Shown here: in pieces, positions 5,618-55,574 of the stretch
Layout: each line of letters starts with the position of its first letter
How positions within the stretch are numbered: the stretch's first letter is position 1
Assembly (NCBI GenBank): GCA_934233745.1
Contig: CAKQGN010000001.1
Span: 397,566-461,565 of the forward strand
Direction: 5' to 3'
Length of the DNA: 64,000 bases
Source: an uncultured Clostridia bacterium
GTDB lineage: Bacteria > Bacillota > Clostridia > Christensenellales > CAG-917
Notes under the pieces: generated by a model
The model's input: only the letters and a program-made list of their open reading frames with translations
What the model was told of the DNA's origin: nothing
Database searches by the model: none
Position numbers and translations under genes: made by a program

Positions 5618-6670
5618 ATGATAAAACTTGAGGGCGTAAGCAAACAGTATCTGTACGGAGCAAGGGTTTTTGCTCCGACGGATATGACAATAAAAGACGG
5701 TGAAATCGTCGCTCTGCTCGGTGACGAGTCGAGCGGCAAAACCACGTTTCTGAAAGTCGTTGCGGGCGTGACGGAATGCGAGGGGAAAGTGCTTTTCGAC
5801 GGTGAACCGCTTGCGAAAAAGCCCGACGACGTTGTGATGATTTTCGATGATCTGGCGTTGTTTGAAAACCGTTCTTGTTATTACAATCTTGCATATCCTC
5901 TCAAAATCAGAGGGGTTGACAAGGGCAAAACAGACGAGATCGTCAAGCATGCGGCGGATATCGTCGGTATAACCGCGTCGCTTTATTTCAAGGCGAAAAA
6001 ACTCGATTTGGCAGACAAAAAACGCCTTGCAATCGCAAGACTTTTCTTGCGCGATTTCAAGGTCGCGCTCGTCGATGACATCACGAGAGGACTTGACAAA
6101 GAGGACGCAAAAACCATTTGGAGCGAGGTTGCTCCCGTCTTGCAGGACTTTGCAAAAGAGGGTAAATGCGTGATTTTTGCAACGCGCGACAAGGACGAGG
6201 CAATCTCGATTGCGGATAGAATCGTCGTGACGCATTATCGTCAAATCAAGCAAATAGGCACATACGAACAGATATGCGAAAATCCGTCGAATATCTGGGC
6301 GGCGCAGGCGTTTGACGAGGATTATGCTTTTGAAAAAGCAAAACTTCAAAGCGTAAACGGCACACTTGTCGCAACCACCGAGGACGGCTTCGAGATAGAC
6401 CTTTCGCATCTGACAAACAGAGTGGTGCAGTCCTACATCGGCAAGAGCGTTTACGTTGGCTGGCATAGCGATTGCTATGACGTGCAAGGCGCGCGACAAG
6501 TCGAAGTAAGACACTCTTACAAAACGAATGACGGATATATTCTCGTCTGTGAAAATTGCAAAATCAAGAGCAGACTCAATCTTGCCCGAGTCGGAACGTT
6601 GCCTCTTTCGGGCAAGGCATTGGTCTTTGACGACACAAACGAAAATTCGATATTGTCTTACGGACAGTGA
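5618..6670 (+). CDS. ABC-type ATPase, MalK/UgpC-like with a C-terminal beta domain; catalytic motifs degenerate; no permease partner nearby
   Basis: Walker A pattern is kept (GDESSGKT). Q-loop Q->D (MIFDD), signature LSGGQ->LDLAD, Walker B DE->DD (LVDDI) and H-loop H->R (FATRD). Confidence 0.75.
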   Translation: MIKLEGVSKQYLYGARVFAPTDMTIKDGEIVALLGDESSGKTTFLKVVAGVTECEGKVLFDGEPLAKKPDDVVMIFDDLALFENRSCYYNLAYPLKIRGVDKGKTDEIVKHAADIVGITASLYFKAKKLDLADKKRLAIARLFLRDFKVALVDDITRGLDKEDAKTIWSEVAPVLQDFAKEGKCVIFATRDKDEAISIADRIVVTHYRQIKQIGTYEQICENPSNIWAAQAFDEDYAFEKAKLQSVNGTLVATTEDGFEIDLSHLTNRVVQSYIGKSVYVGWHSDCYDVQGARQVEVRHSYKTNDGYILVCENCKIKSRLNLARVGTLPLSGKALVFDDTNENSILSYGQ

Positions 6671-6683
6671 GATTGTTGCCGAC

Positions 6684-7047
6684 TATTCGAAGACGGAATT
6701 GGAGTCGCAAGGCGACGACCGTAGCGAGCGCCGAGCTTGACGGTTGTACCGTCCGACTGCGCCATGTTGTTGCGTAGCCGGCGCACAAAGGACGGTGGCA
6801 TAATAAGAGAAATGTCCCTATCTATGCGAGAGCCGAGTGTGTCCCCACGCGAAGCGGACGCCGTGGGTACCCTTTTAAGGGGGAACGGCGGTATGGGCGC
6901 GACGCGTTAAGCAACACATCCAGTGAATGTGTTGTAGCCAAAGCGAACGAGGCGGATTGCGGTGCGCAAACGCCGAAGTCCAAACACGTGAGGAAGGGGG
7001 GCATTGCAATTTAAAAGTGCACGGCGTTCACCTTTGTAGAGAAAGAA
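6684..7047 (+). repeat. structured interspersed element, copy 1 (long form with the optional domain)
   Basis: Shares the blocks GAGCGCCGAGCTTGACGG, GTGGCATAA, CTATCTATGCGAG.GCCGAGTGT, CCCACGCG.AGCGGACGCCGTGGG, GGGGGAACGGCGGTA, AAACACGTGAGGAAGGGGG and TTGTAGAGAAAGAA with five other copies. Confidence 0.85.
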
Positions 7048-7086
7048 CAAGCGGAATAATAACATTCATTTATTTTAGGAGCTGAA

Positions 7087-7584
7087 ATGATAATTTTGGG
7101 CATCGATCCCGGTCTTGCGACAATGGGATATGGCGTGATAAAATCAGAAAAGGGCAATTTCTCCGTAATAGATTACGGGGTTGTCACCACGCCAAAAGAC
7201 TGTACTTTGCCCGAGAGGTTGCTCCAACTCGAAGACGGCGTAAAGGAGCTTATCGACACCTACAAGCCCGACAAAGTGTCCATAGAGGAATTGTTCTTTT
7301 CAAAGAATATCACCACGGGAATACCCGTTGCCGAGGCGAGAGGAGTCATTTTGCTTACGGCGGTGAAGAGTCTTGGCAAGGAAGTGTACGAGTACACGCC
7401 AAACCAAATCAAACAGGCGGTCACGGGCTATGGCGGCGCAGATAAAATCCAAATGCAGCACATGATGCAGGTTTTATTGCGCTTAAAGAGCGTGCCTCGT
7501 CCCGACGATGCCGCCGATGCGCTTGCCGTGGCAATCTGCCACGCTCAAACAAGCAGGCTTGCGGGCAATTTCAAAGTACAATAA
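7087..7584 (+). CDS. ruvC: crossover junction endodeoxyribonuclease RuvC
   Basis: 165 aa. MIILGIDPG.. RNase-H-like fold with the C-terminal ..DAADALAVAICHA motif. Confidence 0.95.
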   Translation: MIILGIDPGLATMGYGVIKSEKGNFSVIDYGVVTTPKDCTLPERLLQLEDGVKELIDTYKPDKVSIEELFFSKNITTGIPVAEARGVILLTAVKSLGKEVYEYTPNQIKQAVTGYGGADKIQMQHMMQVLLRLKSVPRPDDAADALAVAICHAQTSRLAGNFKVQ

Positions 7585-7613
7585 ATCCAAGCACAATGCG
7601 ATAAAAGGTGAGT

Positions 7614-8198
7614 ATGTACAACTATATTCAAGGCAAAATCGTGGACAAAACGTTCACGTCAATCGTCGTTGACAACAACGGCATCGGCTATGAAATCGGC
7701 GTAAGCGGAAACACGCTTATGGACGTCGATATGGGCGAAATAGTCAAGATTTACACATATCTGTACGTCCGCGAGGACGAAATGTCACTGTACGGATTTT
7801 CGCGTTTAGACGAGAAAAAACTGTTTTTGCGCCTCATCGAAATCAGCGGTATAGGCCCGAAAATGGCAATGCAAATCCTCGGCGGTTACGACCTCAAAAC
7901 ACTCACCGTGGCAATCGCAAGCGGCGACAGCAAAACGCTTTGCAAAATCAAAGGTCTTGGCAAAAAAACCGCCGAACTCATCATTTTGAGTTTGCGTGAC
8001 CAAGTTGCCGATGACATCACAATCTTCAACGACCATCGGGACGCAATCACGGGAGAAGACATTGCAGACGCCGTATTTGCCCTCGAAAGCCTCGGAATTT
8101 CCAAAACCGAAGCCGTGCGCATGGCAACGGAGGCGAGCAAGACGTGCCACGGCACAGAGGAAATCATACGCACTTGCTTGCAAAAAATGAGCAAATAG
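7614..8198 (+). CDS. ruvA: Holliday junction DNA helicase subunit RuvA
   Basis: MYNYIQGKIV.. N-terminus and HhH motifs (ISGIGPKMA, IKGLGKKTAE). The ATG at 7614 is preferred over the GTG at 7608 because of RBS spacing. Confidence 0.93.
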   Translation: MYNYIQGKIVDKTFTSIVVDNNGIGYEIGVSGNTLMDVDMGEIVKIYTYLYVREDEMSLYGFSRLDEKKLFLRLIEISGIGPKMAMQILGGYDLKTLTVAIASGDSKTLCKIKGLGKKTAELIILSLRDQVADDITIFNDHRDAITGEDIADAVFALESLGISKTEAVRMATEASKTCHGTEEIIRTCLQKMSK

Positions 8199-8220
8199 CA
8201 CTATTTGGCATTTAGTGTGT

Positions 8221-8513
8221 TCTTATTAACGCAATGTGTTTATTCGGAGTGCGAGCCGCAAGGCGGCGAGAAAAGCGAGCGCCGAGCTTGATGGATAGTA
8301 CAAGCGACTGCGCCGTGTTGTTGCGTAGCTGGCGCACAAAGCGCAGTGGCATAACAAGGGGACGATACCTATTTATGTGAGTGCCGAGTGTTGCCCCACG
8401 CGGAGCGGACGCCGTGGGTTCCCTTTCAAGGGGGAACGGCGGTAGGGGAAACACGTGAGGAAGGGGGACATGGAATTTATAGTTCACGCCGCCCAACTCT
8501 TGTAGAGAAAGAA
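8221..8513 (+). repeat. structured interspersed element, copy 2 (short form)
   Basis: Same conserved blocks as copy 1 but lacks the 88-nt optional domain. Occupies most of the 388-bp ruvA-ruvB gap. Confidence 0.85.
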
Positions 8514-8586
8514 TCTACACTCATTCAAGGCGCACTAATACTCGGACTGCGCCTAACATCGCAAATAACCACCGAAAAGGTAAATC

Positions 8587-9624
8587 ATGATCAAATCACA
8601 ATTTACAAAAGAAAATCAGGACTTCGACGTCACAAATAGGGTGGTGAGTTCGCTCACCATCGATGACGACGAGCAAGAAAACAGCCTTCGTCCGCACAGC
8701 ATGGACGAGTACGTCGGGCAAGAGAAAATCAAGAAGAATCTTGAAGTGTTCATATCTGCCGCAAAGGCGAGGAACGACGCTCTCGACCACGTTTTGCTTT
8801 ACGGACCTCCTGGACTTGGCAAGACCACGCTTGCGCACGTCATTGCAAGCGAACTCGGCGCGCAGATACGAGTCACAAGCGGACCTGCCATCGAAAAAGC
8901 CGCAGACCTTGCGTCTTTGCTCACCAACCTTGAAAAAGGCGACGTGCTGTTTATTGACGAGATACACCGCCTCAACCGCAACATCGAAGAGGTGCTTTAT
9001 CCGGCAATGGAAGATTTTTCTCTCGACCTCGTAAACGGTACCGGCCCTATGGCAAGAAGTATTCGCATACCCCTCAAACGCTTTACGCTTATCGGCGCAA
9101 CGACGAGGGCGGGCATGCTGTCAAGCCCGTTGCGTGACCGTTTCGGCATGTCTTTGCGCCTTGAAATGTACTCGGACGAACAATTGAAGCGCATAGTTAT
9201 GCGTTCAAGCGGTATTTTGGGCATTGCAATCGAGGATTCCGCCGCTCTTGAAATCGCAAAGCGTTCTCGCGGTACGCCGCGTATCGCCAACAGGCTTTTG
9301 CGCCGTGTGCGCGATTTTGCCGAGTACGAAAAACTTGACGGCATAAACCTTGCCATCACACAAAAGGCACTTGCGCTTATGGATGTGGACGAACTCGGTC
9401 TTGACATCACCGATCGCACCGTATTGGAGGCAATCATCGATAAATTCGGCGGAGGTCCTGTCGGACTCGAAACTCTTGCCGCCGCAACGGGGGAGGAAGC
9501 AAGCACCATAGAGGACGTTGTCGAACCTTTCCTCATTCAACTGGGATTTATCGGCAGAACTCCAAGGGGCAGAGTTTGCACTCCCAATGCTTACGACCAT
9601 CTAAAACGTGAGTATAACAAATAG
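8587..9624 (+). CDS. ruvB: Holliday junction DNA helicase RuvB
   Basis: 345 aa with Walker [10 protein letters not shown], Walker B FIDEIH and a RuvB C-terminal winged helix. Confidence 0.97.
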
Positions 9625-9630
9625 TTTTTA

Positions 9631-9985
9631 CGAGACGGAACACGAGCCGCAAGGCGGCGAGAAAAGAGAGCGCCGAGCTTGACGGACAGTACAAGCGACT
9701 GCGCCTTTTGGGTGCGAAGCTGGCGCACAAAGCGCAGTGGCATAAATAGAGAAATGTCCCTATCTATGCGAGTGCTGAGTGTTGCCCCACGCGGAGCGGA
9801 CGCCGTGGGTTCCCTCAAAGAATGCAGAGGGGGAACGGCGGTATGGGCGCGACGCGTTAAGCAACACATCCAGTGAATGTGTTGTAGCCAAAGCGAACGA
9901 GGCGGATTGCGGTGCGCAAACGCCGAAGTCCAAACACGTGAGGAAGGGGGAATATTAAATTTAAGACCCGCCGTTCACTTTGAAA
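9631..9985 (+). repeat. structured interspersed element, copy 3 (long form)
   Basis: Same blocks as copy 1, including the optional domain at 9844-9931. Fills the ruvB-queA gap. Confidence 0.85.
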
Positions 9986-9995: not shown

Positions 9996-11036
9996 ATGCA
10001 AGAAAACGAAAATCTAAAAACGCACGATTTCTTCTATGAATTGCCCGAAGAACTCATTGCGCAAACCCCGATAGAGCCTCGCGATCATTCGAGGCTTTTG
10101 GTGTATAATCGTCAAACGGATCAGATACAGCACAAGCATTTTTACGATTTGCCCTCATTTCTCAAAAAGGGCGATTTGCTTGTCATCAACAACACGAGGG
10201 TTATCCCGGCGCGCATTTTCGGGCATATCGAAAACCACGAGAGCGTGCTTGAAGTGTTGCTGTTGAAACGTAAAGATTATACGCATTGGGAAACCATAAT
10301 GAAACCTGCGCGCAAGGCTCGTTTAGGCTCGGTGATTCACTTTTGCGACGAATTGAGCGCAGTCGTGACCGAGATAGGCGATTACGGCGCACGCACGATA
10401 GAATTTCAATTTGACGGTGTGTTCGAGGACATTCTCGACAGGGTGGGCAATATGCCGCTTCCGCCGTACATCAAGGAAAAACTTGCCGACAAAGAGAGAT
10501 ATCAAACCGTGTACAGCAAGATCGAAGGCTCGGCTGCCGCGCCCACCGCAGGTTTGCATTTTACGCCCGAACTTATGCAAAAAATCAAGGATATGGGCGT
10601 TGATTTTGCAACCGTGCTTTTGCACATAGGACTCGGCACGTTCCGCCCCGTCAAAGAGGACAATATCCTTGAACACGAGATGCACACCGAATACTATGAA
10701 ATCGACGAGGAAAACGCCGAAAAAATAAACTGCGCCATAAAAGAGGGTAGGAGAGTCATATGCGTCGGCACGACAAGCGTTCGTACACTCGAAACGGTTG
10801 CCGACGACAACGGATATGTCCGCGCGCAAAAGGGCGACACGAGCATATTTATTTACCCCGGCTACAAATTCAAGTGCGTAAAGGGGCTTATCACCAACTT
10901 CCACTTGCCCGAAAGCACGCTGATTATGCTTGTTTCGGCGTTTGTGGGCAGAGAAAAAACGCTCGAAATCTACCAAGAGGCGGTCAAGGAGAAGTACAGA
11001 TTCTTCTCGTTTGGCGATTCTTCATTTTTTGAATAA
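9996..11036 (+). CDS. queA: S-adenosylmethionine:tRNA ribosyltransferase-isomerase
   Basis: 346 aa. Motifs ..FDYELPEELIAQ-like N-terminus, ..GSAAAPTAGLHFT.., ..GTTSVRTLE.. . Confidence 0.95.
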   Translation: MQENENLKTHDFFYELPEELIAQTPIEPRDHSRLLVYNRQTDQIQHKHFYDLPSFLKKGDLLVINNTRVIPARIFGHIENHESVLEVLLLKRKDYTHWETIMKPARKARLGSVIHFCDELSAVVTEIGDYGARTIEFQFDGVFEDILDRVGNMPLPPYIKEKLADKERYQTVYSKIEGSAAAPTAGLHFTPELMQKIKDMGVDFATVLLHIGLGTFRPVKEDNILEHEMHTEYYEIDEENAEKINCAIKEGRRVICVGTTSVRTLETVADDNGYVRAQKGDTSIFIYPGYKFKCVKGLITNFHLPESTLIMLVSAFVGREKTLEIYQEAVKEKYRFFSFGDSSFFE

Positions 11037-11058
11037 CCGTACCGCCCGACTCTTGTAG

Positions 11059-12210
<1,152 letters not shown>

Positions 12211-23360: not shown

Positions 23361-25481
23361 ATGGAAAGAAGAATTTTCAAGACAACGGTAGGCGGCAGAG
23401 AAATGACCGTCGAAACAGGCGCATACTGCTCGCAATCCAACGGCTCTTGCATCGTGCGTTGCGGCGACACGGTTGTTATGGTCAATGCGACTATGAGCAA
23501 AGCTCCCCGTGACGGTATGGACTTTTTCCCTTTGAGCGTTGACTACGAAGAGAAAATGTACGCAATCGGCAAAATCCCCGGCGGATTCAAAAAGAGAGAG
23601 GGCAGAGCAAGCGACAAGGCAATCCTTACATCACGTCTTATCGACAGACCTATTCGTCCGCTTTTCCCCAAGGGACTTTACAACGACGTTACGGTCATCG
23701 CAACGGTTTTGTCAGTGGACACAAACATTCCGCCTGAAGTTTTCGGCATGATCGGCTCATCCGTTGCGCTTTCGATAAGCGACATTCCTTGGGCAGGCCC
23801 CACGGGCTCGGTCGTAGTCGGTATGGTGGACGGCGAGTACGTCATCAACCCCGACAGCGCACAACGCGCAAAATCTCGTCTTACCCTCAACCTCAGCGGC
23901 ACGAAAGACGCAATCATGATGGTTGAAGCGGGCGCAGACGTCATCACCGAAAAGGAAATGCTCGGCGCAATTATGTTCGGTCACGAAGAAATCAAAAAAA
24001 TCGTGGCTTTCATCGAGGAAATCCAAAAAGAAGTCGGCAAGCCCAAACTCGATATGGACCTCGAACATATCCCCGACAATATCAACGAGGCAGTCAGAGC
24101 TTATGCAAACGAAAAGATGGACTATGTTCTCGAAGCGTTTGACCGCTATGAAAGAGAGGAGAGAGAGGACGCACTCAACGTTGACGTGCTTGCTCACTTT
24201 GCAGACGATTGGAGCGACGAGCCCAAGAAAACCAAATTCATCCTCGACAGCCTCTACTATCTCAAGAAAGAGAAAGTCCGCGCAAAGATTCTCGACGGCG
24301 GCGTACGTCCCGACGGCAGAACTCTCACCGAAATTCGTCCTATCTGGTGCGAAGTGGGTATGCTCCCGCGCGTTCACGGTAGCGCAGTGTTCACAAGAGG
24401 ACAAACTCAAGCTCTCACCACTTGCACTCTCGGCACGATAAGCGAAGCTCAAAAGCTCGAAGGTCTTGACGACGATTACTACAAGAGATACATGCATCAA
24501 TACAACATGCCCGGTTACTCCACAGGCGAAGCAAAGGCTCTCAAGAGCCCCGGTCGTCGTGAAATCGGACACGGCGCACTTGCAGAACGCGCTCTCGAAC
24601 CCGTGCTTCCTTCCGAAGAGGAGTTCCCGTACGCAATCCGCACGGTATCCGACATTTTGAGCTCCAACGGTTCGACTTCGCAAGCATCCGTTTGCGGCAG
24701 CACGCTCGCACTTATGGACGCAGGCGTTCCCATCAAAGCACCCGTCGCAGGCATCGCAATGGGACTTATCAAGAACGAAGAGAGCCACAAAGTTGTGGTT
24801 TTGACCGACATCCAAGGTCTTGAAGACTTCCTCGGCGATATGGACTTCAAAGTCGCAGGTACGACGGAAGGTATCACCGCAATCCAAATGGATATCAAAA
24901 TCAAGGGTATCGATGAGGAAATCCTCACCCGTGCGCTTGAACAAGCAAGACTCGGCAGACTCGAAATTCTCGGCAAGATGCTTGCAACTCTTCCTGCTCC
25001 GAGAGCAGAACTCAGCAAGTTTGCACCCAAGATCGTGTCCTTTGCAATCGATCCCGACAAGATTCGCGACGTCATCGGCACGGGCGGCAAGACCATCAAC
25101 AAGATCATCGAGGATACCGGCGTCAAGATCGACATCAACGACGAAGGCACAATCTTCATTGCATCAAGCGACGACGCTGCTATCAGAAAAGCTCGCACCA
25201 TCATCGAAAACATCGTCCGCGACGTTGAAGTCGGCGACGTCTATGAAGGCAAAGTCACCAAGATTATGGAAAACGATAAAGGTCAATTCGGTGCGTCCGT
25301 CAACTTTGCTCCCGGCAAAGACGGCATGATCCACATCTCCAAACTTTCCGACCAACGTGTCGAAAAGGTCACCGATGTTGTCAATGTCGGCGACATCGTT
25401 CTTGTCAAAGTCATCAAGATTGACGAGAAACACAGAGTTGATTTGCGCCTCAAAGAAGTTCTCTCTAAAGCCACCAATTAA
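23361..25481 (+). CDS. pnp: polyribonucleotide nucleotidyltransferase (PNPase)
   Basis: 706 aa with two RNase PH domains, then KH (..GTGGKTINKI..) and S1 (..GDVYEGKVTKI..) domains. Confidence 0.97.
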   Translation: MERRIFKTTVGGREMTVETGAYCSQSNGSCIVRCGDTVVMVNATMSKAPRDGMDFFPLSVDYEEKMYAIGKIPGGFKKREGRASDKAILTSRLIDRPIRPLFPKGLYNDVTVIATVLSVDTNIPPEVFGMIGSSVALSISDIPWAGPTGSVVVGMVDGEYVINPDSAQRAKSRLTLNLSGTKDAIMMVEAGADVITEKEMLGAIMFGHEEIKKIVAFIEEIQKEVGKPKLDMDLEHIPDNINEAVRAYANEKMDYVLEAFDRYEREEREDALNVDVLAHFADDWSDEPKKTKFILDSLYYLKKEKVRAKILDGGVRPDGRTLTEIRPIWCEVGMLPRVHGSAVFTRGQTQALTTCTLGTISEAQKLEGLDDDYYKRYMHQYNMPGYSTGEAKALKSPGRREIGHGALAERALEPVLPSEEEFPYAIRTVSDILSSNGSTSQASVCGSTLALMDAGVPIKAPVAGIAMGLIKNEESHKVVVLTDIQGLEDFLGDMDFKVAGTTEGITAIQMDIKIKGIDEEILTRALEQARLGRLEILGKMLATLPAPRAELSKFAPKIVSFAIDPDKIRDVIGTGGKTINKIIEDTGVKIDINDEGTIFIASSDDAAIRKARTIIENIVRDVEVGDVYEGKVTKIMENDKGQFGASVNFAPGKDGMIHISKLSDQRVEKVTDVVNVGDIVLVKVIKIDEKHRVDLRLKEVLSKATN

Positions 25482-25496
25482 CGCCTAACATTGTCA

Positions 25497-25562
25497 ACAG
25501 CCCCTTGTCCCGAAATCACGTACGCTTTGTACGTTGGGTTTTGGTTCAAGGGGCTGTTTTCG
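25497..25562 (+). terminator. long hairpin terminator after pnp
   Basis: ACAGCCCCTTG ... CAAGGGGCTGT, with an inner hairpin and a T-run. Confidence 0.6.
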
Positions 25563-25698
25563 CGTTATGCATTTAATCGGATGGCTTTGGAGAGAACTTC
25601 ATATGAGTCTATCGCACTTAGGACACATGTAAGTTGAGAGAAGAATAACGACTGCAACAAACACTCGTTCAAGATATTATTATATACGGTATGTGACC

Positions 25699-25760
25699 AT
25701 TCGGAGTGCGTCTTGCGGTTTGATTGCCACCTCGCACCGTTTGTTGCTCATCGCAATGAC
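25699..25760 (-). repeat. REP-like unit (GTCATTGCGA..GGCAATC family), minus orientation
   Basis: The reverse complement reads GTCATTGCGATGAGCAACAAACGGTGCGAGGTGGCAATC.., the same family as 47880, 52338, 53108 and 57647. Confidence 0.7.
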
Positions 25761-25787: not shown

Positions 25788-25898
25788 CACACAAAGTGTG
25801 AATATCATTTTTTTCGAAAGAAAAAAATATCACTTGCGCAAAGCGCAAATATCACTGCGTCGATGTCGCAATATCACTCTTGCAAAGCAAGAATATAT
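25788..25898. repeat. tandem array of five variable hairpins, each followed by (A)ATATCAC
   Basis: Units are CACACaaaGTGTG-AATATCA, TTTTTTTCgaaaGAAAAAAA-TATCAC, TTGCGCaaaGCGCAA-ATATCAC, TGCGtcgatgtCGCA-ATATCAC and TCTTGCaaaGCAAGA-ATATAT. Confidence 0.8.
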
Positions 25899-25918
25899 AG
25901 AAAAGCAATGCCTTGGCA

Positions 25919-38285: not shown

Positions 38286-38313
38286 GCGCACCAAACAGCG
38301 AATAACTGCGGCA

Positions 38314-38380
38314 GAGGCATCCGTCCGTCAACTCATTTACGCCTTGTAAATTAGGGTTGCCGTTCGGATGCCTCTTTCTT
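38314..38380 (+). terminator. possible terminator after efp
   Basis: Perfect 10-bp stem GAGGCATCCG/CGGATGCCTC with a large loop, followed by a T-rich stretch. Confidence 0.4.
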
Positions 38381-38617
38381 GTTCTTCATCTGTTTGGCGC
38401 ACTTAGGTATTAACGCTTATTCTTCATCCGTTTCAGACTCTTGACGACAAGTTATAATCGTTTCTTTCTGTTTTTCATCCAAATAACCGCACTTTTTACA
38501 AGAGCTTTTGCAAAATATAATCAATATTGTTTTTTGTTTTTCGTCATCTTTCATTAAGAAAAAAGTCTAAATTTGTCGCAATGCAATTTGCATTGTTTTG
38601 TCGGCATATAGTTTTGT

Positions 38618-46863: not shown

Positions 46864-46938
46864 GCGGGAGTGACTCAGTGGTAGAGTGTCACCTTGCCAA
46901 GGTGAAAGTCGCGGGTCCGAATCCCGTCTCCCGCTCCA
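46864..46938 (+). tRNA. tRNA-Gly (anticodon GCC), CCA encoded; T-loop reads TCCGAAT instead of TTCGAAT
   Basis: Hand-folded cloverleaf. Acceptor GCGGGAG/CTCCCGC, anticodon arm TCACC-TTGCCAA-GGTGA, T arm GCGGG-TCCGAAT-CCCGT. Confidence 0.85.
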
Positions 46939-47126: not shown

Positions 47127-47200
47127 GGCATCATAGCCAAGAGGTAAGGCAAGGGTCTGCAAAATCCTCACCCCCAGTTCAAGTCTGGGTGATGCCTCCA
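47127..47200 (+). tRNA. tRNA-Cys (anticodon GCA), CCA encoded
   Basis: Acceptor GGCATCA/TGATGCC, anticodon arm AGGGT-CTGCAAA-ATCCT, T arm CCCAG-TTCAAGT-CTGGG. Confidence 0.85.
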
Positions 47201-47342: not shown

Positions 47343-47699
47343 ATGGAAGACAGTCCTCTTGTCGAACAATCGAAATCGTTTGCACTTGACATAATCAAGC
47401 TGTGCAATCAAATCAAAATCGATAGGCGCGAAACCGTGCTTGTCAATCAACTTATGCTCTCGGGAGCGAGCATAGGCGCAAGAGTGAGAGAGGCATATTG
47501 CCTGCAAGACAAAAACGACTTTATCAAGAAATTGCAAGAGGCTCTCAAAGATTGTTCGGAAACAGAATATTGGATTGAATTGCTGATTGAAAGCGGCACG
47601 TACTATTCGGACAGAATGATTCTTGAAAAGTGTATCGAGATAAAGAAGATGCTTATGTCCACAATCGCAAAGGAGAGCGAAACGGCAAAAGCCGAATAG
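47343..47699 (+). CDS. four-helix-bundle protein (23S rRNA intervening-sequence protein / Avd-like family)
   Basis: 118 aa. ..SKSFALDIIKLC......E.VL.NQL.RS..SIGA...EA......DF..KL.. is the typical pattern of this family. Confidence 0.8.
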   Translation: MEDSPLVEQSKSFALDIIKLCNQIKIDRRETVLVNQLMLSGASIGARVREAYCLQDKNDFIKKLQEALKDCSETEYWIELLIESGTYYSDRMILEKCIEIKKMLMSTIAKESETAKAE

Positions 47700-48190: not shown

Positions 48191-48277
48191 GCCGGAATGG
48201 CGGAATAGGCAGACGCAAGGGACTTAAAATCCCTCGATGGAAACATCGTATCGGTTCGACCCCGATTTTCGGCACCA
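48191..48277 (+). tRNA. tRNA-Leu (anticodon TAA), long variable arm, CCA encoded
   Basis: Acceptor GCCGGAA/TTTCGGC, anticodon arm AGGGA-CTTAAAA-TCCCT, variable arm CGATGGAAACATCG, T arm ATCGG-TTCGACC-CCGAT. Confidence 0.85.
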
Positions 48278-50246: not shown

Positions 50247-50318
50247 GAACAAAATTTGCGAGTGATATTCGCCCACCATTGCTCAAACGGCGCATAGGTC
50301 ATGGCAACCGTCCCGAAT

Positions 50319-50350
50319 GTCATTCAGAGGAGCAAAGCGACGTGGGAATC
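50319..50350 (+). repeat. single REP-like unit (GTCATTCAGAGGAGCAAAGCGACGTGGGAATC)
   Basis: Same family as the units at 52338, 53108 and 57647. Confidence 0.7.
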
Positions 50351-50526
50351 CCCTAAATAGAAACGAAAACCAAGTGGCGATTGCCACAGACCTCGCTTGT
50401 TTTCGCAATCACTAACCGCGCAAGCCCTCTTCACTCTCAAAATGAGAGGGATAAAAACTCAAACCGCAATTCCGTGCGAGTGCTTGCTTGGTGTTTAGCG
50501 TGCAATGCACGCAAGCGGATAAACGA

Positions 50527-50867
50527 AAACTTATTCAAGGCGTACTTATAAACGGAATGTGTATATTCAGGGTGCGAGCCGCAACGGCGGCGAGAAAATG
50601 GAGCGCCGAGCTTGACGGATAGTACAAGCGACTGCGCCGTGTTGTTGCGTAGCTGGCGCACAAAGCGCAGTGGCATAATGAGGAAAATGCCCCTATCTAT
50701 GCGAGTGCCGACTGTCTCCCCCGCGAACGATGGATAATCTTGTAGAGAATTGCCTCTATTTGAGTGGTGGGAGAAAAGCCCGAAAGGGAAAGAGGGGGCG
50801 CATCTAATTTAGAGTTCACGCCATTCAACTTTTGTAGAGTGCAAACAAAACACGTGAGGAAGGGGGA
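50527..50867 (+). repeat. structured interspersed element, copy 4 (5' half intact, 3' half rearranged or degenerate)
   Basis: The 5' blocks are conserved up to CTATCTATGCGAGTGCCGA. After that the order of the TTGTAGAG and CACGTGAGGAAGGGGGA modules is permuted. Confidence 0.75.
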
Positions 50868-50924
50868 AGCGGATAAACATAAAATCCCGCACCGTTATCC
50901 TGATAAAAACCAACATATAAAAAT

Positions 50925-52046
50925 ATGAGCGAACAAGAAATCAACAACACCCAAGCAGAACAGACGACTGCGCAAGACGAACAATCCGACCAAACCGAGC
51001 AATCGGCATCGGAGCAATCTGCCAAGTCGAAAAAGTCTGCAAAAGGCGCAAAGGGCGACAAAAAATCCGCCGCTGCGACCAAAAAGGAGCAAGCCCGCTT
51101 GAAAAAAGAGTGGGAGGATTCTATCGTTGCTTCAAAAAAGGTCAAGCATGAGGAAATGCGTCGCAAGCTCAAACGCGCCATGCTGATCATGCTTGTTTTT
51201 TCGCTTATCGTGACGTCGGTTGTGTACATTATGCTTTTGTTTGTTCAAGAAAACAACATTCGCATCACGGCGAGCAACCGCAACAAAGAAAAATCAATCT
51301 CGTTGTCGATGGACAACGATTTTTGGACGCCGTACCTCAATGCCGAAGGCCCGGAGCATATGTGGAACATTAGTTATGATGTCCGCTACAAAACCGAGCA
51401 ACTTGACACGATTGCCAAGGTTGCCGAAATGCTTGAGGCGGACGAAGTGCAACTTGGCACACAAAACGGCGAGCAATTTATCAGATTTGTTTTCATGCTC
51501 AAAAACACGGGCAACGAGGCGGCGCACATCAACTATGAGATGACTCTTGAATTTGACAAGCACAAACTTCACGACGCCGTTCGCGTCACATGGGGCGAGA
51601 GCTTCAAGAATCCGAATGCAGAGCTTGAGAAAAAAACCGATGTAAAGGTTTATGCCGCTTTGTCCAAAAACGAGCGTCTTGCCGGTTCAAACATCAATAT
51701 CAAGGGTGACGGCACGCCTCGCACGGCGCAAGAGGGCTTCATCGAGTATGTTGCCTATCCCGGCGACTTTACCACACAGGTTCACAAGGGCGACAAGTAT
51801 TATTACGTCAAGGATTATGAATCCACGGTTGACATTGACAAGCGATTTGACGATATGGCAAACGGCTTTGTTGCCACGACGCCGTTCTTTTCGGACGAAT
51901 ATGTATTCCAACGCGAAGCGGACATGGCAAAAGGTGACATTATGTACTGTTATGTGAGCATCTGGCTTGAGGGGAGTGACTTTGAATGTATCGATGACCG
52001 ATTGGGAGGTTATTGCAAGATTGGCTTGAACTTCTATGCAACCTAA
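50925..52046 (+). CDS. membrane-anchored paralog of the two SipW-signal proteins (acidic/Lys-rich cytoplasmic N-terminus, one TM helix, exported domain)
   Basis: The C-terminal motif YCYVSIWLEGSDFECID..GGYCKIGLNFY parallels YYITMEIWIEGTDAECIQ..GGGITLKMEFVY in the 53502 gene. Confidence 0.6.
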   Translation: MSEQEINNTQAEQTTAQDEQSDQTEQSASEQSAKSKKSAKGAKGDKKSAAATKKEQARLKKEWEDSIVASKKVKHEEMRRKLKRAMLIMLVFSLIVTSVVYIMLLFVQENNIRITASNRNKEKSISLSMDNDFWTPYLNAEGPEHMWNISYDVRYKTEQLDTIAKVAEMLEADEVQLGTQNGEQFIRFVFMLKNTGNEAAHINYEMTLEFDKHKLHDAVRVTWGESFKNPNAELEKKTDVKVYAALSKNERLAGSNINIKGDGTPRTAQEGFIEYVAYPGDFTTQVHKGDKYYYVKDYESTVDIDKRFDDMANGFVATTPFFSDEYVFQREADMAKGDIMYCYVSIWLEGSDFECIDDRLGGYCKIGLNFYAT

Positions 52047-52071
52047 AAATTCGCCGAAAGGCGAATTTTTC
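52046..52071 (+). terminator. intrinsic terminator
   Basis: AAATTCGCC-GAAA-GGCGAATTT hairpin plus a T-run. Confidence 0.75.
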
Positions 52072-52073
52072 AA

Positions 52074-52165
52074 TGATATCGCGCTTTGCTCGATGATATC
52101 ACTTCGTGCGATGCACGATATAATTACGGAGTGATATCACCGCACAATGTGAGACATTCACGCCC
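52074..52165. repeat. hairpin/GATATCAC array (includes the perfect palindrome GTGATATCAC)
   Basis: ..GATATCGCGCTTTGCTCGATGATATCAC TTCGTGCGATGCACGATATAAT TACGGAGTGATATCAC CGCACAATGTG.. . Confidence 0.65.
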
Positions 52166-52337
52166 GAAAGGACAACGTGCGACACCAATGCCCCTACTCG
52201 TGTCATGTTGAGTGCATAGTGCGATACACACCCTCATGTGTCATGTTGAGCGGAGTGAAACGCAGTCGAAACATCTCCTGGAAAGGAAACGATGTGAATT
52301 GTCGCAAGTATAGCGCACAACAATTCAATTCTTCCTT

Positions 52338-52430
52338 GTCATTGCGAGGAGCAACGAATGTTGCGACGTGGCAATCTAGCGGAGCGAAATGCGCCTGACG
52401 GCTGGATTCCCACGCTACGCTCGGAATGAC
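52338..52430. repeat. composite REP-like palindrome (two inverted GTCATT.CGAG..GGAATC units)
   Basis: GTCATTGCGAGGAGCAACGAATGTTGCGACGTGGCAATC-TAGCGGAGCGAAATGCGCCTGACGGCTG-GATTCCCACGCTACGCTCGGAATGAC. Confidence 0.8.
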
Positions 52431-52492
52431 AGTAGGGTGGGACACCCACACCTGATTGACAAGTGGGATATTCCACAATCCGAGCAATGTGA

Positions 52493-52582
52493 GGATATCA
52501 TCGTGCGTTGCACGATATCATCACAAAGTGATATCACCGCCGCAGGCGATATCATGTGCGCAGCATATGCCTGCGCATCACC
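52493..52582. repeat. hairpin/GATATCA array
   Basis: GATATCATCGTGCgtTGCACGATATCAT CACAAAGTGATATCAC CGCCGCAGGCGATATCAT GTGCGCAGcatatgCCTGCGCATCAC. Confidence 0.65.
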
Positions 52583-52937
52583 TGCGAAGCGCGGCATTTT
52601 GTCGCATTTTCCCACTTTTATTAAAAAAAGTATATCAAAAGATTTATCGTGGCGGGCGGGCGCAGGTATGCTCGCGCACATTCGCGTACATTCGCGCGTC
52701 ACGCGCTCGCTTACGCACGTTATTATACAAAATATGCATTTTATATATTATATACCGCATAAAATTATCAAAATATGCAAAATCATTGCATAAAAGCGTA
52801 TAAATATCCAAAATTACATTGCGCAAGAAAACCGACATAATCGTACATATGTACGGACATCATACATTTGATGTGGATAAAATCATGCGTTTTGTAGGGA
52901 AAAATGTTGAAACCTAAAGAAAATCTTAATTTTGGTG

Positions 52938-52966
52938 TTGACATTTATGCATTGTCGATTTATAAT
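52938..52966 (+). promoter_or_regulatory. perfect consensus sigma-A promoter TTGACA-17 nt-TATAAT, ~535 nt upstream of the 53502 gene
   Basis: TTGACA at 52938-43, a 17-nt spacer and TATAAT at 52961-66. Confidence 0.6.
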
Positions 52967-52982
52967 TCATGTATAAACGAAT

Positions 52983-53022
52983 CGCATGTGTGCGTGTATG
53001 TACATGTACGTGCGCGCATATA
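52983..53022. repeat. 40-nt perfectly alternating pyrimidine-purine tract (Z-DNA-prone)
   Basis: In CGCATGTGTGCGTGTATGTACATGTACGTGCGCGCATATA every position alternates Y-R. Confidence 0.85.
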
Positions 53023-53107
53023 ATGGAGTGAAGAGGGCAGACGGTTGCGCAAATTCGCAATTTTACACCCCACCCGATAGACAAGTGGAATATTCCGATT
53101 CTTCCTT

Positions 53108-53201
53108 GTCATTGCGAGGAGCAACGAATGTTGCGACGTGGCAATCTAGCGGAGCGAAATGCGCCTGTCGGCTGGATTCCCACGCTGTCGCTCTGAATGA
53201 C
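53108..53201. repeat. composite REP-like palindrome (near-identical to 52338-52430 and, inverted, to 57647-57740)
   Basis: GTCATTGCGAGGAGCAACGAATGTTGCGACGTGGCAATCTAGCGGAGCGAAATGCGCCTGTCGGCTGGATTCCCACGCTGTCGCTCTGAATGAC. Confidence 0.8.
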
Positions 53202-53351
53202 AAAATGGTGGGACACCCACACCCGAAAGCACAACGTGTGACACCCCGTCCCCATGTGTCATCCTGAGGCACGAAGTGCCGTGAGGATCTCCTGGAAAGG
53301 AAACGATGTGAATTGTCGCAAGTACAGCGCACAACAATCCGATTCTTCCGT

Positions 53352-53400
53352 GTCATTCCGAGGGAGCGGAGTGACCGTGGGAATCCAGCCGTAAGGCGCA
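53352..53400 (+). repeat. REP-like unit (GTCATTCCGAGGGAGCGGAGTGACCGTGGGAATC + CAGCCGTAAGGCGCA)
   Basis: Same family. Part of a ~165-bp module that is also present at about 52240-52345. Confidence 0.7.
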
Positions 53401-53587
53401 CCCACCCGAACGCACAACAAAACAAAAACAAAAAAATAAAAAAATAAAATTTGGGATAAAGTTTTTTAGAAAGGGGCTTTATTCCGATAAGGAGAAAAAC
53501 GATGAAAAAGAAAGGTTTGATTATTTCAACAGTCGTGATGGTTGTTGTCTTGATTGCATCTCTCACCACCGCTACATACGCTTGGTT
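53401..53587 (+). repeat. outer inverted repeat, left arm (5' UTR, RBS and first 29 codons of the 53502 gene)
   Basis: About 187 nt, essentially identical (one A-run indel) to the reverse complement of 57443-57632. Confidence 0.9.
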
Positions 53588-54764
53588 CTCGGCGCAAGCA
53601 AGTGCGACAGTTGATGATCTAGCATTCACAACCAAGGCTGCAGATGGTCTTCAAATCGCTATGAAAAATGCTGGCTCAACAACTGCAGAATATGTTTCGG
53701 GCAACCTTACATACAACCCTGCTGCAACCGATAATACCTATTGGGAAGGCGATGTGAATGATTGGGGTACTAACCTAGGTTTTGATGCTATTGATATTGG
53801 TGAAATTACGGATGCAGTAACCTATCATACTACTCAAAATTATCCTGTATTTAGCGGATATACACCCGTTGCTGTTTTAGCGGTTAATACCACATATTAC
53901 ATTCCCACAAAACATGAAAATATTACTACTAAAGACGGATTTGATGCAATCTCAGGAGCAAAGTATTATGAGAAAGAATCTAAATATGTTCTTGCCAATA
54001 AATTAATTGATAGCGTAACAACTTACTACACAGTCAAGTCAACAAAAACGGGAAAAACAGCAGCAGAGCTTCCCAATAACTATACAGCAAATTCTTGGTG
54101 GGCAAGAGCTACAAGCACTGCGACTATAACACCTGAAGGCATTGAGAATAATGGCCAATTCCTCGTGCCTACTGGTTATGATGATTCTATTAACCCAATC
54201 GGTTATGCAAGTGCGGTTAGAAATGGCAATTATTACTATTTGACAATGGCTGTAAAACCAGTTACTGACGTTGACAAACTTGGTTTGAAGATGACATTTG
54301 GTGCCACACAAAATAAAGCAGCACAAACACTTGATACCTCTGTTACTCAAGGCAATCTAAATGGTGCTATGGCAGCTGCAACTCGTTGTAATATTCTTTT
54401 TGAAAACAGCGCACTTCAAACTGCAAATAAGTCAAAACAAAATATTGCTCCGTTCAGCGCATTCTATGTTGATGGAACATCGCTGAAAAAATATACAGGT
54501 GCAGATGATGCTTCGTTTAAGAGCAATGAAGATGGTGCATACAATGCTACTGGTGTATATGAATATGTGCTGTCAGACACTTCCGTCAAGGCTGGTACGA
54601 TCTACTATATCACTATGGAAATTTGGATTGAAGGTACAGATGCTGAATGTATTCAAGAAACTGCAGGGGGAGGCATAACACTCAAAATGGAATTTGTCTA
54701 TGACAAAAATGGAAATACCCCGGTTGCTGACTTCGCTGCTGGAACTACTGTTACATGGGCATAA
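53502..54764 (+). CDS. secreted protein with a SipW-dependent (TasA/camelysin-class) signal peptide, paralog A
   Basis: MKKKGLIISTVVMVVVLIASLTTATYAWFSA.. fits the SipW-cognate signal class (..T.AYF[ST]). A SipW-type peptidase gene lies 4 kb downstream. The body is more AT-rich than the backbone. Confidence 0.75.
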   Translation: MKKKGLIISTVVMVVVLIASLTTATYAWFSAQASATVDDLAFTTKAADGLQIAMKNAGSTTAEYVSGNLTYNPAATDNTYWEGDVNDWGTNLGFDAIDIGEITDAVTYHTTQNYPVFSGYTPVAVLAVNTTYYIPTKHENITTKDGFDAISGAKYYEKESKYVLANKLIDSVTTYYTVKSTKTGKTAAELPNNYTANSWWARATSTATITPEGIENNGQFLVPTGYDDSINPIGYASAVRNGNYYYLTMAVKPVTDVDKLGLKMTFGATQNKAAQTLDTSVTQGNLNGAMAAATRCNILFENSALQTANKSKQNIAPFSAFYVDGTSLKKYTGADDASFKSNEDGAYNATGVYEYVLSDTSVKAGTIYYITMEIWIEGTDAECIQETAGGGITLKMEFVYDKNGNTPVADFAAGTTVTWA

Positions 54765-54780
54765 TTCCAATACACTTGAT

Positions 54781-54853
54781 AAAAATTACAACAATATACA
54801 AGTCCCGATTCACACCGAATCGGGACTTGTGTTTTTTTTATCCCTCTTGAATT
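54781..54853 (+). repeat. inner inverted repeat, left arm; contains the terminator of paralog A (54798-54839) and the -35 box of the NTase promoter
   Basis: The 73 nt match the reverse complement of 56164-56235 with two differences. Hairpin ACAAGTCCCGATT-CACACC-GAATCGGGACTTGT plus T8. Confidence 0.9.
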
Positions 54854-54875
54854 GTCCACCCGTCAATGTTATAAT
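54847..54875 (+). promoter_or_regulatory. promoter of the NTase gene (TTGAAT-17 nt-TATAAT, TG-extended)
   Basis: TTGAAT at 54847-52 (inside the inner IR) and TGTTATAAT at 54867-75, about 30 nt before the ATG at 54906. Confidence 0.55.
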
Positions 54876-54905
54876 TTTGGTAGAAAGCCACAAAGGAGGA
54901 ATAAT

Positions 54906-55550
54906 ATGGCATATCATTTTGCAAAGAAAGCAGATGTTAAAGAAACCAACAAATGGTGTGTTGAAATTTTGAATGAAGTGCAAACCATTGTAAAAGATTA
55001 TTTTACATTTTCGTATGAATTGATTGGAAGTGGTGGCAATCGCCTTGTAACATACAATGACGGTAATCCATTTGATTTGGACTACAATATTATTATCCAA
55101 AAAGACAAGCAACATTTGCTCCAACAGCCAGACCAAATAAAAGATATATTCTTCAAAGCGTTTCAAAAGACTTTTTGCAAGAATATCAAAGATTTCAACC
55201 GAACAAACTATATAAAAATCAACAATTCAAAATCAGTTATAACTGTTAAAAATATTGAATATGGGAATTTGGCATTTTCTTTTGATGTCGCAATTTTGAG
55301 GCAACACCCCAACGGATATTTTGAAAAAATAATTTTTGATAAAAAGAATAATCGCTATATCTGGAATCAAGTCAAGGACTCAAAAGATTTGAACGATAAA
55401 GTTTTGCATGTAAAACAAAGACCTGGCTGGAACGCTGTGAGAGAACGCTATCTTGAATTGAAAAATAATAGTTTGCGAAACAATGATGAAACAAAATCGT
55501 TTTCGATATTCATTCAGGTCATAAACGAGTTATATCAACATCTTGAATAA
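54906..55550 (+). CDS. Pol-beta-superfamily nucleotidyltransferase (MNT/SMODS-like core with a ~100-aa C-terminal extension)
   Basis: The G-S...D-x-D signature ELIGSGGNRLVTYNDGNPFDLDYNII and a third acidic residue in AFSFDVAIL. RBS AAAGGAGGA before the ATG at 54906. Confidence 0.6.
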   Translation: MAYHFAKKADVKETNKWCVEILNEVQTIVKDYFTFSYELIGSGGNRLVTYNDGNPFDLDYNIIIQKDKQHLLQQPDQIKDIFFKAFQKTFCKNIKDFNRTNYIKINNSKSVITVKNIEYGNLAFSFDVAILRQHPNGYFEKIIFDKKNNRYIWNQVKDSKDLNDKVLHVKQRPGWNAVRERYLELKNNSLRNNDETKSFSIFIQVINELYQHLE

Positions 55551-55574
55551 CTCTCAAATCTATTAGATAACCAC

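Follow-up and report, generated by a model that had tools for sequence, protein, structure and literature searches.

A modular, gene-less structured repeat gained and lost in operon spacers of uncultured gut Clostridia

What fills the unusually wide spacers between the ruv genes in a 64-kb stretch of DNA (contig CAKQGN010000001.1, hereafter "the window") from an uncultured Clostridia bacterium? A recurrent, structured, RNA-like element had been predicted there from the sequence, six times in the window and three times in the ruvC-ruvA-ruvB-queA cluster. Here we compare the window with database loci and strains (L001 to L159) and describe an intergenic element without open reading frames (ORFs), 290-500 bp per insertion, which is present in many copies, folds on one strand, is gained and lost seamlessly between strains, exchanges modules, leaves solo units and follows GC skew in its orientation. 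We tentatively read it as a non-autonomous, modular mobile element that is moved by a trans-supplied, single-stranded DNA (ssDNA)-type mechanism and whose core is kept for the element itself, an interpretation that we consider quite possible while rating it short of probable. The mobilising enzyme, an RNA product and a partner for that RNA are putative components of this proposal.

Six copies with a covarying one-strand fold

The six copies lie where the original prediction had placed them, as established by a covariance model and by block counts against shuffled sequence. The model (R1; 146 positions, 24 pairs) was built from 51 diverse copies of both types described below and, run on the window with filters off, returned exactly six full-length matches, at 6691-6836, 8242-8387, 9633-9778, 50565-50711, 57960-58103 (minus strand) and 61608-61747, with E-values of 1e-33 to 1e-46 and the next best match at 0.06. 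Among the conserved blocks, GTGGCATAA occurs six times (0.46 expected from shuffles), AACACGTGAGGAAGGGGG six times with up to three mismatches (0.09 expected) and GAGCGCCGAGCTTGACGG seven times (0.07 expected), the seventh being a chance match within recA. Pfam identifies the genes next to copies 1-3 as those for an ABC ATPase, RuvC, RuvA, RuvB and QueA, and the spacers measure 388 nt (ruvA-ruvB) and 371 nt (ruvB-queA), exactly as had been noted. Mapped units make up 3.65% of the window, and the source scaffold carries seven copies in 81 kb by R1, or about one per 11-12 kb.

Beyond this scaffold, a survey with a three-block DNA pattern, taking one genome per species, drew in at least 102 stretches (728 kb) from about 25 species represented by metagenome-assembled genomes (MAGs); the listed stretches hold at least 126 copies by R1 and at least 132 by a hidden Markov model of the 5' part. 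Nearly all carriers among the matches listed are small-genome MAGs labelled Christensenella sp., uncultured Clostridiales/Clostridia or Firmicutes CAG:475/CAG:238, and one is a complete 1.65-Mb chromosome. Plasmid and phage records gave no match with blastn in its 'distant' mode, viral contigs gave no match to the three-block pattern or the 3' motif, and searches of the literature by topic and by literal sequence strings found no description of the element. Several element-bearing MAGs go under the names Bacteroides sp., Phascolarctobacterium, Butyrivibrio crossotus or Anaeroplasmataceae. Orthology of their flanks to the window (L025, for example, is 82% identical across 3.2 kb) suggests that these bins are mislabelled or contaminated.

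Common to all copies is a 5' core of about 146 nt that contains four helices: P1 (GCCGC-AAG-GCGGC), P3 (CUUGAC...GUACAAG), P4, a variable hairpin, and P5 (GGCAUA...UAUGC). It is followed by one of two alternative 3' domains, either of which closes in a purine run. Type A (copies 1, 2, 3, 5 and 6) folds a long-range helix, GUGUU-CCCC/GGGG-AACAC, around three more helices and ends in GAGGAAGGGGG; type B (copy 4) has another interior and ends in GAAGGGAAGGGG or GGAAAGAGGGGG. Two optional modules occur, one of 88 nt that substitutes for GGGG in the 3' domain (copies 1, 3 and 6) and one of about 50 nt that sits after GAGUGCCG. Upstream of the core stand zero to three 'leader' hairpin units of about 37 nt each, and downstream of the 3' domain comes a tail hairpin of about 45 nt, to which some copies add a second GAGGAAGGGGG unit; the 3' side can also have a terminal hairpin unit that resembles the leader. 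The ~50-nt module (…GACGGAATAGCGATTGTTACGAAGTCAATCGCGTC) is also found alone outside large elements, in either orientation (near position 5027 of L022, and in L010, L043, L085 and L092), and could be an independent small mobile unit.

The covariation on which the idea of a structured element depended proved strong, well above both shuffle and slide controls. For 35 distinct type A copies RNAalifold gives 52 pairs, 14 of them with compensatory double changes; the type A 3' domain has 8 pairs with compensatory changes (35 copies). An independent count of the type A pairs puts 99.1% of cells in standard pairs, none of 500 column shuffles does as well as the data in pairing, in covariation score or in its count of doubly changed cells, and sliding the 3' partners by 1-3 columns lowers pairing to 40-56%. 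Across the 51 diverse copies of types A and B, the four 5' helices are 94.7% paired with nine pairs double-changed, and the unpaired exceptions in the core mostly come from one hairpin variant aligned out of register. The compensatory exchange expected in hairpin 1 (GCCGC/GCGGC versus GTCGC/GCGAC) is borne out, and the P4 hairpin comes in the versions TGCGCC/GGCGCA, TGCGTGGC/GCCACGCA and ACGGGCGA/TCGCCCGT. By contrast, a helix described as closing just before GTGGCATAA mixes two things together: the inner hairpin does covary, but the pairing ACTGCGC/GCGCAGT assigned to copies 2-4 overlaps that hairpin and lacks independent support.

The fold belongs to one strand. Tables of type A pairs hold about 120 G-U cells against 7 A-C cells, and two U-G pairs are invariant; therefore the listed strand folds and its complement does not. 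Wobble pairing on a single strand had been proposed for GCATAA/TTATGT in copies 2 and 6, and the GC to GU changes seen in GGCATA/TATGY, together with the excess of G-U over A-C, agree with it. Two copies that lie antisense to transcription (L005 and L100) still keep all pairs.

No reading frame is conserved across the copies, in keeping with the original prediction. Protein coding on either strand is ruled out by indels that are not multiples of three, by the optional modules and by the compensatory pairs. Antisense ORFs of 90-200 amino acids (aa) nevertheless overlie the G-rich element on the minus strand at 8212-8496, 9591-9869 and 61594-61971, and gene callers annotate such spurious ORFs, for example as a 79-aa gene in L104 and a 152-aa gene in L132; they cluster together only through overlying the repeat.

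Seamless gain, loss and module exchange between strains

Alignments of empty and filled sites between species are too diverged and too repeat-rich to give junctions, so conspecific strains were compared instead, taken as contigs that encode exactly the window's RuvB, 504-aa protein, PF05635 protein, RecA and others. Strains with identical flanking proteins differ by the seamless presence or absence of whole elements. One such case is copy 2, a 338-nt unit at 8213-8550 (plus strand) between ruvA and ruvB whose exact ends come from empty alleles: the site is filled in the window, L103 and L111 and empty in L104, L105, L106, L109, L110 and L112, where the spacer is 50 nt long (GGCATT^GCCTAAC) as against 388 nt when filled. 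The insert has neither a target duplication nor terminal inverted repeats, and in L107 and L108 it is 84 nt longer with a different 3'-domain variant. It consists of a partial 5' hairpin unit, the core (8242-8387, plus strand; R1 162.5 bits, E 4.8e-45), a type A 3' domain (8388-8467, plus strand, from RNAalifold and the pair counts on 35 copies) that ends in GAGGAAGGGGG, and, at 8468-8550 (plus strand) as read from the sequence, a tail hairpin (...TTTATAGTTCACGCCGCCCAACTCTTGTAGAGAAAGAA) and then a terminal hairpin unit (ACACTCATTCAAGGCGCACTAATACTCGGACTGC). The 3'-domain helices are GUGUU-CCCC/GGGG-AACAC, the CGC-GGA-GCG hairpin, CGCCG/CGGCG and UUCCC/GGGAA, and the tail stem co-varies among copies (AGAGT/ACTCT, AAAGT/ACTTT, GGGT/ACCC).

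Copy 1, a unit of about 418 nt at 6652-7069 (plus strand; ends good to 1-2 nt) between the ABC ATPase gene and ruvC, is missing in L106, where the ABC stop codon overlaps the ruvC start. In the window it provides the last five codons and the stop of the ABC gene, so that this stop and the ruvC start are now 416 nt apart; the part at 6652-6670 replaces the C-terminus of the ABC ATPase, which reads SILSYGQ* when filled and SIYSRS* when empty. Together, the overlapping ABC/ruvC genes and the 50-nt ruvA-ruvB spacer of conspecific strains bear out the idea that the ruv cluster received these elements by insertion. The core of copy 1 lies at 6691-6836 (plus strand; R1 143.9 bits, E 9.7e-40) and its 88-nt module (TGGGCGCGACGCG...GCCGAAGTCC, the same module as in copies 3 and 6) at 6894-6981 (plus strand); the module is missing from the same element in L104 and L107. 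Copy 3, at 9631-9985 (plus strand) between ruvB and queA, has its core at 9633-9778 (R1 167.5 bits, E 1.8e-46), a type A 3' domain and the 88-nt module at 9844-9931, which is missing in L106; L104 has an extra 47-nt module. Its span is given without empty-allele mapping, no empty allele having been found.

The spacer between the 504-aa gene and the DUF2357 gene holds copy 6, a unit of about 419 nt at 61594-62012 (plus strand) made of the core (61608-61747), a type A 3' domain, the 88-nt module (61813-61900) and 3' hairpin units. This spacer is empty in L120 and L121 (TTCTAATT^AAAATTCC, 61 nt, ...CTAATT^AAAATT...), and the filled junction, CTAATT^[419 nt]^AAAATT, leaves at most a 2-nt TT ambiguous, with no duplication and with unrelated ends. 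In L114, L117 and L119 the same spacer holds an inverted element plus another repeat, and in L118 an element in plus orientation without the 88-nt module.

Copy 4 is a composite insertion of 496 nt at 50398-50893 (plus strand), between the EAL gene and a 373-aa gene, built of upstream repeat modules, a leader unit, the core (50565-50711; R1 156.3 bits), the type B domain (50712-50802) and a tail, with a second GAGGAAGGGGG unit at 50849-50866. Its site is empty in L133, L136 and L137 (GACCTCGCT^ATTATCCTG), carries only the first module in L135 and a type A core in L132, and in other strains is occupied by type B, in some of them with the 88-nt module and in some lacking it. Copy 5, at 57841-58146 (minus strand; R1 140.6 bits, E 8.5e-39) upstream of a minus-strand 424-aa gene, has a leader unit at 58119-58144, its core at 57960-58103 and a type A 3' domain; its element ends are unmapped. 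The spans first proposed thus had the places right, but the true insertion units delimited by empty alleles (copies 1, 2, 4 and 6) are larger. The core starts 14 nt from the mapped 5' boundary in copy 6, 29 nt in copy 2, 39 nt in copy 1 and 167 nt in copy 4, and 45-190 nt of variable modules follow the folded region on its 3' side. Copies 1, 2 and 6 have a 3' hairpin unit 0-4 nt from the end; on the 5' side, copies 2, 4 and 5 have a hairpin unit and copies 3 and 6 lack one.

Turnover also leaves fragments and mosaics. The topA-gid junction is empty in the window's strain and filled in three other strains. In the pnp-deacetylase spacer the window has only a solo leader hairpin unit (25661-25710, plus strand) where L149 and L151 have leader-core-tail-leader; comparison with these shows the 5' half of the left leader joined to the 3' half of the right leader, and the solo leader thus arises by recombination between the flanking direct-repeat leaders. 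A solo tail remnant (AACCGTACCGCCCGACTCTTGTAGAAA; 11035-11061, plus strand) in the queA-tgt spacer is present in all strains of the species; in another species (L024) the orthologous site has a complete type B element, with whose tail the remnant aligns. The pgk-tpiA spacer carries the element in opposite orientations in different species, and at one orthologous copy with an identical junction the P4 hairpin and P5 loop have given way to other variants from the family; the gene that flanks this copy has 72% identity at third codon positions. Furthermore, alleles with and without the 88-nt module differ by a co-adapted base (UA-UGGGC...GUCCA-AAC versus UA-GGGG-AAAC), which points more to copies that recombined and so exchanged pre-adapted variants than to a simple nested insertion.

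Mobilisation and competing explanations

How might such an element move, and what keeps its core? We propose that the copies would be mobilised by a trans-acting factor with a single gene per genome or a gene elsewhere; the likeliest candidate is an HUH/Y1 enzyme of the IS200/IS605-like, ssDNA 'peel and paste' kind, which would act on the terminal hairpins. Recombination between the many copies would reassort the elements. The large core would be kept intact for the element's own propagation or retention, most plausibly as an RNA scaffold for a trans-encoded protein upon read-through from neighbouring genes, as omega RNAs are for TnpB/IscB; effects on ruvA-ruvB-queA expression would be side effects. 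Seamless insertion, the lack of target-site duplications and terminal inverted repeats, the hairpin just short of the 3' end and the orientation with GC skew are all compatible with an IS200/IS605-like single-strand mechanism.

According to crude ORF calls around 89 copies, 34 lie between genes on the same strand as the element, 16 between genes on the opposite strand, 26 in convergent and 13 in divergent spacers, and the downstream gene is co-oriented in 47. Co-orientation with the neighbours, put forward for all six copies, does hold in the window but is not general: 16 copies are antisense, inverted alleles exist, and of the 46 copies with usable neighbours 34 follow GC skew. The folding strand is the locally G-rich one in 43 of 60 copies and in those 34 of 46 with usable neighbours, the latter including 7 of 10 copies whose neighbours both lie on the other strand, figures that come from stretches of at most 8 kb, are small in number and use local skew only as a proxy for replication direction. 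The window itself has a skew of +0.038 and bears five of its six copies on the plus strand. Orientation thus tracks GC skew better than it tracks neighbouring genes, with the G-rich strand presumed to be the lagging-strand template. Co-orientation in the window would then follow from a replication-linked bias together with the location of most genes on the leading strand, rather than from membership in a transcript.

The original prediction suggested a guide-RNA scaffold of IS200/IS605 type (HEARO or omega-RNA-like) as one identity for the element. This assignment found no model match, no partner gene in the sampled flanks and no end motif at six mapped junctions. Rfam at gathering thresholds has no match for the element anywhere in the window (tRNAs only, or noise), and at E<=10 none on four element regions that cover both types and both optional modules, including copies 1-3, copy 4 and a type B copy that has both of these modules; neither HEARO (RF02033) nor IS605-orfB matches these regions even at E<=10. 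The companion statement, that the element could not be placed in a known RNA family, stands as far as Rfam is concerned. The position of the core, 14 to more than 150 nt from the boundary, also argues against a guide scaffold, since guide and scaffold have to be contiguous. Some features agree with the omega-RNA/HEARO idea, which is unproven, and the existence of copies antisense to their operon weakens the further suggestion of a class processed from operon transcripts.

Several results weigh against the mobile element that we favour. No gene for TnpA, TnpB, IscB, IsrB or a reverse transcriptase stands beside any of about 140 copies or elsewhere in about 0.9 Mb of sampled flanks, so that the suggested link to IscB, IsrB, TnpB or reverse transcriptase genes failed to appear in those flanks, which are a sample and not whole genomes. 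Pfam finds no transposase, reverse transcriptase or RNA-guided nuclease among 40 window proteins. The recurrent families that emerge when 1518 ORFs from 102 loci are clustered all against all are confined to ABC ATPases, hydrogenases, orthologous neighbours and the spurious antisense ORFs, while a zinc-finger/HUH motif screen and Pfam analysis of the flanks returned radical SAM, Nuo51, subtilase and oxidoreductase proteins and no TnpA/TnpB. An IS200/IS605 element is expected to have a conserved target or end motif; none is seen at six mapped junctions, some of which lie in composite insertions, where the left flanks read CATT, AATT, GAT(T), CGCT, GCTT and GCGG and the mapped element 3' ends TGC, CTT, CAT(T), ACC and ATT. 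The core abuts neither element boundary, and the terminal hairpins keep their loops (TTATAAACG-like) while their stems differ between copies, even within one genome. Several 'insertions' are in fact replacements of short segments, and recombination between alleles would explain these no less well than transposition. The single-sequence folding energy is unremarkable and uninformative (z of -1.24 for the folding strand and -2.28 for the complement). A further weaker point concerns the fold and not mobility: the type B 3' domain shows high pairing with almost no covariation in RNAalifold; for that domain we claim structure only for its closing helix. The only recombinase seen near the window is a large serine recombinase (Resolvase, Recombinase and Zn_ribbon_recom domains, 500 aa) about 9 kb upstream of it (L154 1-868; scaffold_116 24210-25078), which adjoins no copy.

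Comparison with known systems places the element, by analogy, conceptually between omega-RNA-bearing palindrome-associated transposable elements (PATEs) or stand-alone HEARO on one side and modular repeats such as BOX on the other. ORF-less IS200/IS605 derivatives with omega RNAs, the PATEs, are an established concept (PMC10055086). Like PATE, HEARO and TnpB right-end RNAs, the present element is multi-copy, ORF-less and intergenic with a large one-strand fold, and it also resembles them in lacking terminal inverted repeats and target duplication, in a hairpin near its 3' end, in an apparent replication-linked strand bias and in a presumed need for proteins in trans (PMC10055086). Unlike them, it has no Rfam match, no tnpA, tnpB or iscB in the sampled flanks and no target or end motif at its junctions; its scaffold is flush with neither end, and it has two 3' domains, expansion modules and hairpin stems that vary within a genome. 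Pneumococcal BOX repeats are likely parasitic and thought to affect co-transcribed genes, and BOX (boxA-boxB(n)-boxC), RUP and SPRITE resemble our element in being modular, ORF-less, intergenic and confined to a narrow clade, with extensive predicted RNA structure (PMC3049150). BOX modules, however, are simple hairpins of 45-60 nt whose new insertions are rare between strains, in contrast to a multi-junction fold of 230-260 nt with strong covariation and frequent conspecific turnover; similarity in sequence would not be expected. A larger, more complex fold (about 230-350 nt), alternative domains and expansion modules, a missing partner and end motif and fast strain turnover set the element apart from both neighbours.

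Among other families, REP/BIME mosaics, ERIC/IRU and the bcr repeats of Bacillus cereus are likewise intergenic mosaics of small hairpin units (leader, tail and X-type in our case) with solo units and arrays. REP units, though, are palindromes of about 35 nt that are conserved in sequence within a genome and have an identifiable RAYT transposase gene, and we know of no REP/BIME, ERIC/IRU or bcr repeat with a 146-nt four-helix core and a structured 3' domain. The large orphan bacterial RNAs ROOL, GOLLD, OLE and raiA share the ornate, covariation-supported fold but have one or few copies per genome in fixed contexts and are in Rfam, unlike an element that recurs about once per 10 kb, varies between strains and has no Rfam match.

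Perhaps the fold matters only as ssDNA, in a transposition or recombination intermediate or as a priming or recombination site on the lagging-strand template, and the RNA has no role. The placement of the folding strand on the G-rich strand in 34 of 46 copies regardless of gene direction would suit this, as would seamless insertion with terminal hairpins, the full set of pairs in the antisense copies, and the CGC-GAA-GCG and CGC-GGA-GCG mini-hairpins of the domain: such mini-hairpins are very stable in DNA, and DNA hairpins tolerate G-T wobbles. Even so, no known ssDNA transposon or recombination site needs a multi-junction fold of about 250 nt with long-range helices and expansion segments, features typical of RNA are present in the GNRA-type loops (GCAA, GAAA) and invariant U-G pairs, and the skew result rests on short stretches and crude ORF calls. 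We consider a DNA-only role rather unlikely, if the most serious competitor to a mobile element with a retained core.

Alternatively, the host itself may use the element as a cis-acting RNA, the fold in mRNA blocking exonucleases, making processing sites or insulating cistrons, and copies being kept for that purpose. Similar roles have been proposed for REP, BOX and ERIC. BOX-type repeats are believed to affect co-transcribed genes (PMC3049150). A scan of the elements and their immediate surroundings gave no promoter or terminator signal beyond the level of shuffled sequence, and with no terminator inside, transcripts of an operon would continue through the element; 34 of 50 copies between same-strand genes are co-oriented, like all six in the window, and orthologous copies persist despite the divergence of the flanking gene noted above. 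Yet the ruvA-ruvB, ABC-ruvC, EAL-373aa, 504aa-DUF2357 and topA-gid spacers are empty in some conspecific strains, one and the same spacer can carry the element antisense to its operon, the other 16 of those 50 contexts are antisense, many further copies lie in the convergent and divergent spacers counted above, and orientation tracks GC skew, not genes. A host function of this kind seems unlikely to us. A cis-regulatory leader or riboswitch was rejected outright, position and orientation relative to genes not being constant.

It is doubtful, but conceivable, that we are dealing with a new class: a family of guide or scaffold RNAs whose putative effector is encoded once per genome, or a self-acting, ribozyme-like RNA or ssDNA that would direct seamless insertion and excision. 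RNA-mediated mobility, as a retroelement resembling short interspersed nuclear elements (SINEs) copied by a reverse transcriptase in trans or as a self-inserting and self-excising ribozyme-type element, is improbable. It would account for 5' ends and module content that vary around a conserved core, for mosaic, recombinant copies at one locus and for the lack of a DNA transposase in the sampled flanks; against it, these flanks show no reverse transcriptase gene either, there is no target duplication and no A-rich or otherwise consistent 3' end, no ribozyme family matches in Rfam at E<=10, and orientation appears to track replication, not transcription. Group I and II introns, IStrons and self-cleaving ribozymes were discarded on the same Rfam result and because copies are intergenic; a classical DDE-type miniature inverted-repeat transposable element on the unrelated ends and the lack of terminal inverted repeats and target duplication (copies 2 and 6); and an integron attC site because the 146-nt core with its 3' domain is not a single imperfect palindrome. 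Least plausible of all, and very improbable, is a dispersed family of trans-acting small RNA genes with a promoter for each copy. Conserved blocks and a stable fold speak for it; against it, the conserved modules neither contain nor adjoin a sigma-70-like promoter or a terminator, the modules on their 5' and 3' flanks vary, and copies are dispensable between strains.

Neighbouring repeats, variable regions and significance

The rest of the window, judged by Pfam on the 40 proteins, consists of housekeeping genes of a spore-forming, Clostridia-like organism, among them clpB-like, pgi, tgt, yajC, secDF, recJ, relA, pnp, ftsK and miaB as well as recA, rny, efp, spoIIIA, xseA and ispA. Other repeats share its spacers. 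A second family, 'X', lies at 38298-38390 and 25483-25570 of the window and around positions 13600-14480 of L144-L153; a unit starts with GCGAATAACTG or GCCTAACATTG, forms a long hairpin with variable, co-varying stems around a conserved loop (CAACTCATTTACGYCTWGTAAATTAGGGTTG or TCACGTACG...GTACGTTGGG) and ends in CTTTCTTGTTCTTCATC or GCGTTATGC. With these boxed ends and an imperfect palindrome X recalls integron attC sites and is more attC-like than the main element, and the efp-spoIIIAA spacer holds one to five tandem X units depending on the strain, for a length of 285-879 nt. Short repeats occur at about 57655-57740 (minus strand), about 50316-50350 and 25800-25900 of the window and in L011, L072, L081, L100 and L139; they comprise GTCATTGCGAGGAGCAACGAATGTTGCGACGTGGCAATC-type units and tandem (A/G)TGATATY-hairpin units, which often stand just upstream of the 'GCGGATAAACGAACACTTATTC' module that precedes leaders.

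Strain variation extends to genes. A PF05635 gene, encoding a 23S-rRNA-intervening-sequence protein (IVP), lies at 47343-47699 within a tRNA cluster (tRNA genes at 46864-46935, 47127-47197 and 48191-48274); proteins of this family are four-helix bundles related to the Avd protein of diversity-generating retroelements. Conspecific strains have one to three PF05635 genes at differing places (L132-L141, L158, L159), and small GIY-YIG ORFs of 85-93 aa share those variable spacers. Further on, a strain-variable island (50925-59877) is bounded by copy 4 on the plus strand and copy 5 on the minus strand; its proteins have no Pfam match and include paralogues at 53502-54764 and 56254-57528 with signal-peptide-like N-termini, and its gene content varies by strain (DUF4238, SecB-like and IVP genes). 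The complete MAG CP091723.1 (L065) has an identical pair of element-plus-gene copies in inverted orientation, which face each other across about 4 kb. Finally, the region 60077-63999 encodes a 504-aa protein without a Pfam match and then a 983-aa DUF2357 protein, with copy 6 between them; we take the DUF2357 protein to be McrC-like, and the arrangement suggests a restriction-type defence pair.

If the element is as it seems, a single structured repeat without genes, active to this day, makes up about 3-4% of a small gut-bacterial genome, and strains whose housekeeping proteins are identical vary in the operon spacers that it occupies, in its orientation and in its internal modules. If it were in fact a new class, more than 100 copies per 1.6-Mb genome would be reshaping operons of uncultured gut Clostridia today. 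In practical terms, gene callers derive spurious ORFs of 90-200 aa from the repeats, which can serve as strain markers and are likely hot spots for assembly breaks and recombination. The two 3' domains and the 88-nt and ~50-nt modules form a built-in data set for RNA structure determination, and the filled and empty alleles of ruvA-ruvB, ABC-ruvC and topA-gid amount to a natural experiment on what a structured insert of 300 nt does to tight operons. Moreover, just as HEARO RNAs came before the discovery of IscB, this element may be a lead toward a putative mobilising or RNA-binding factor.

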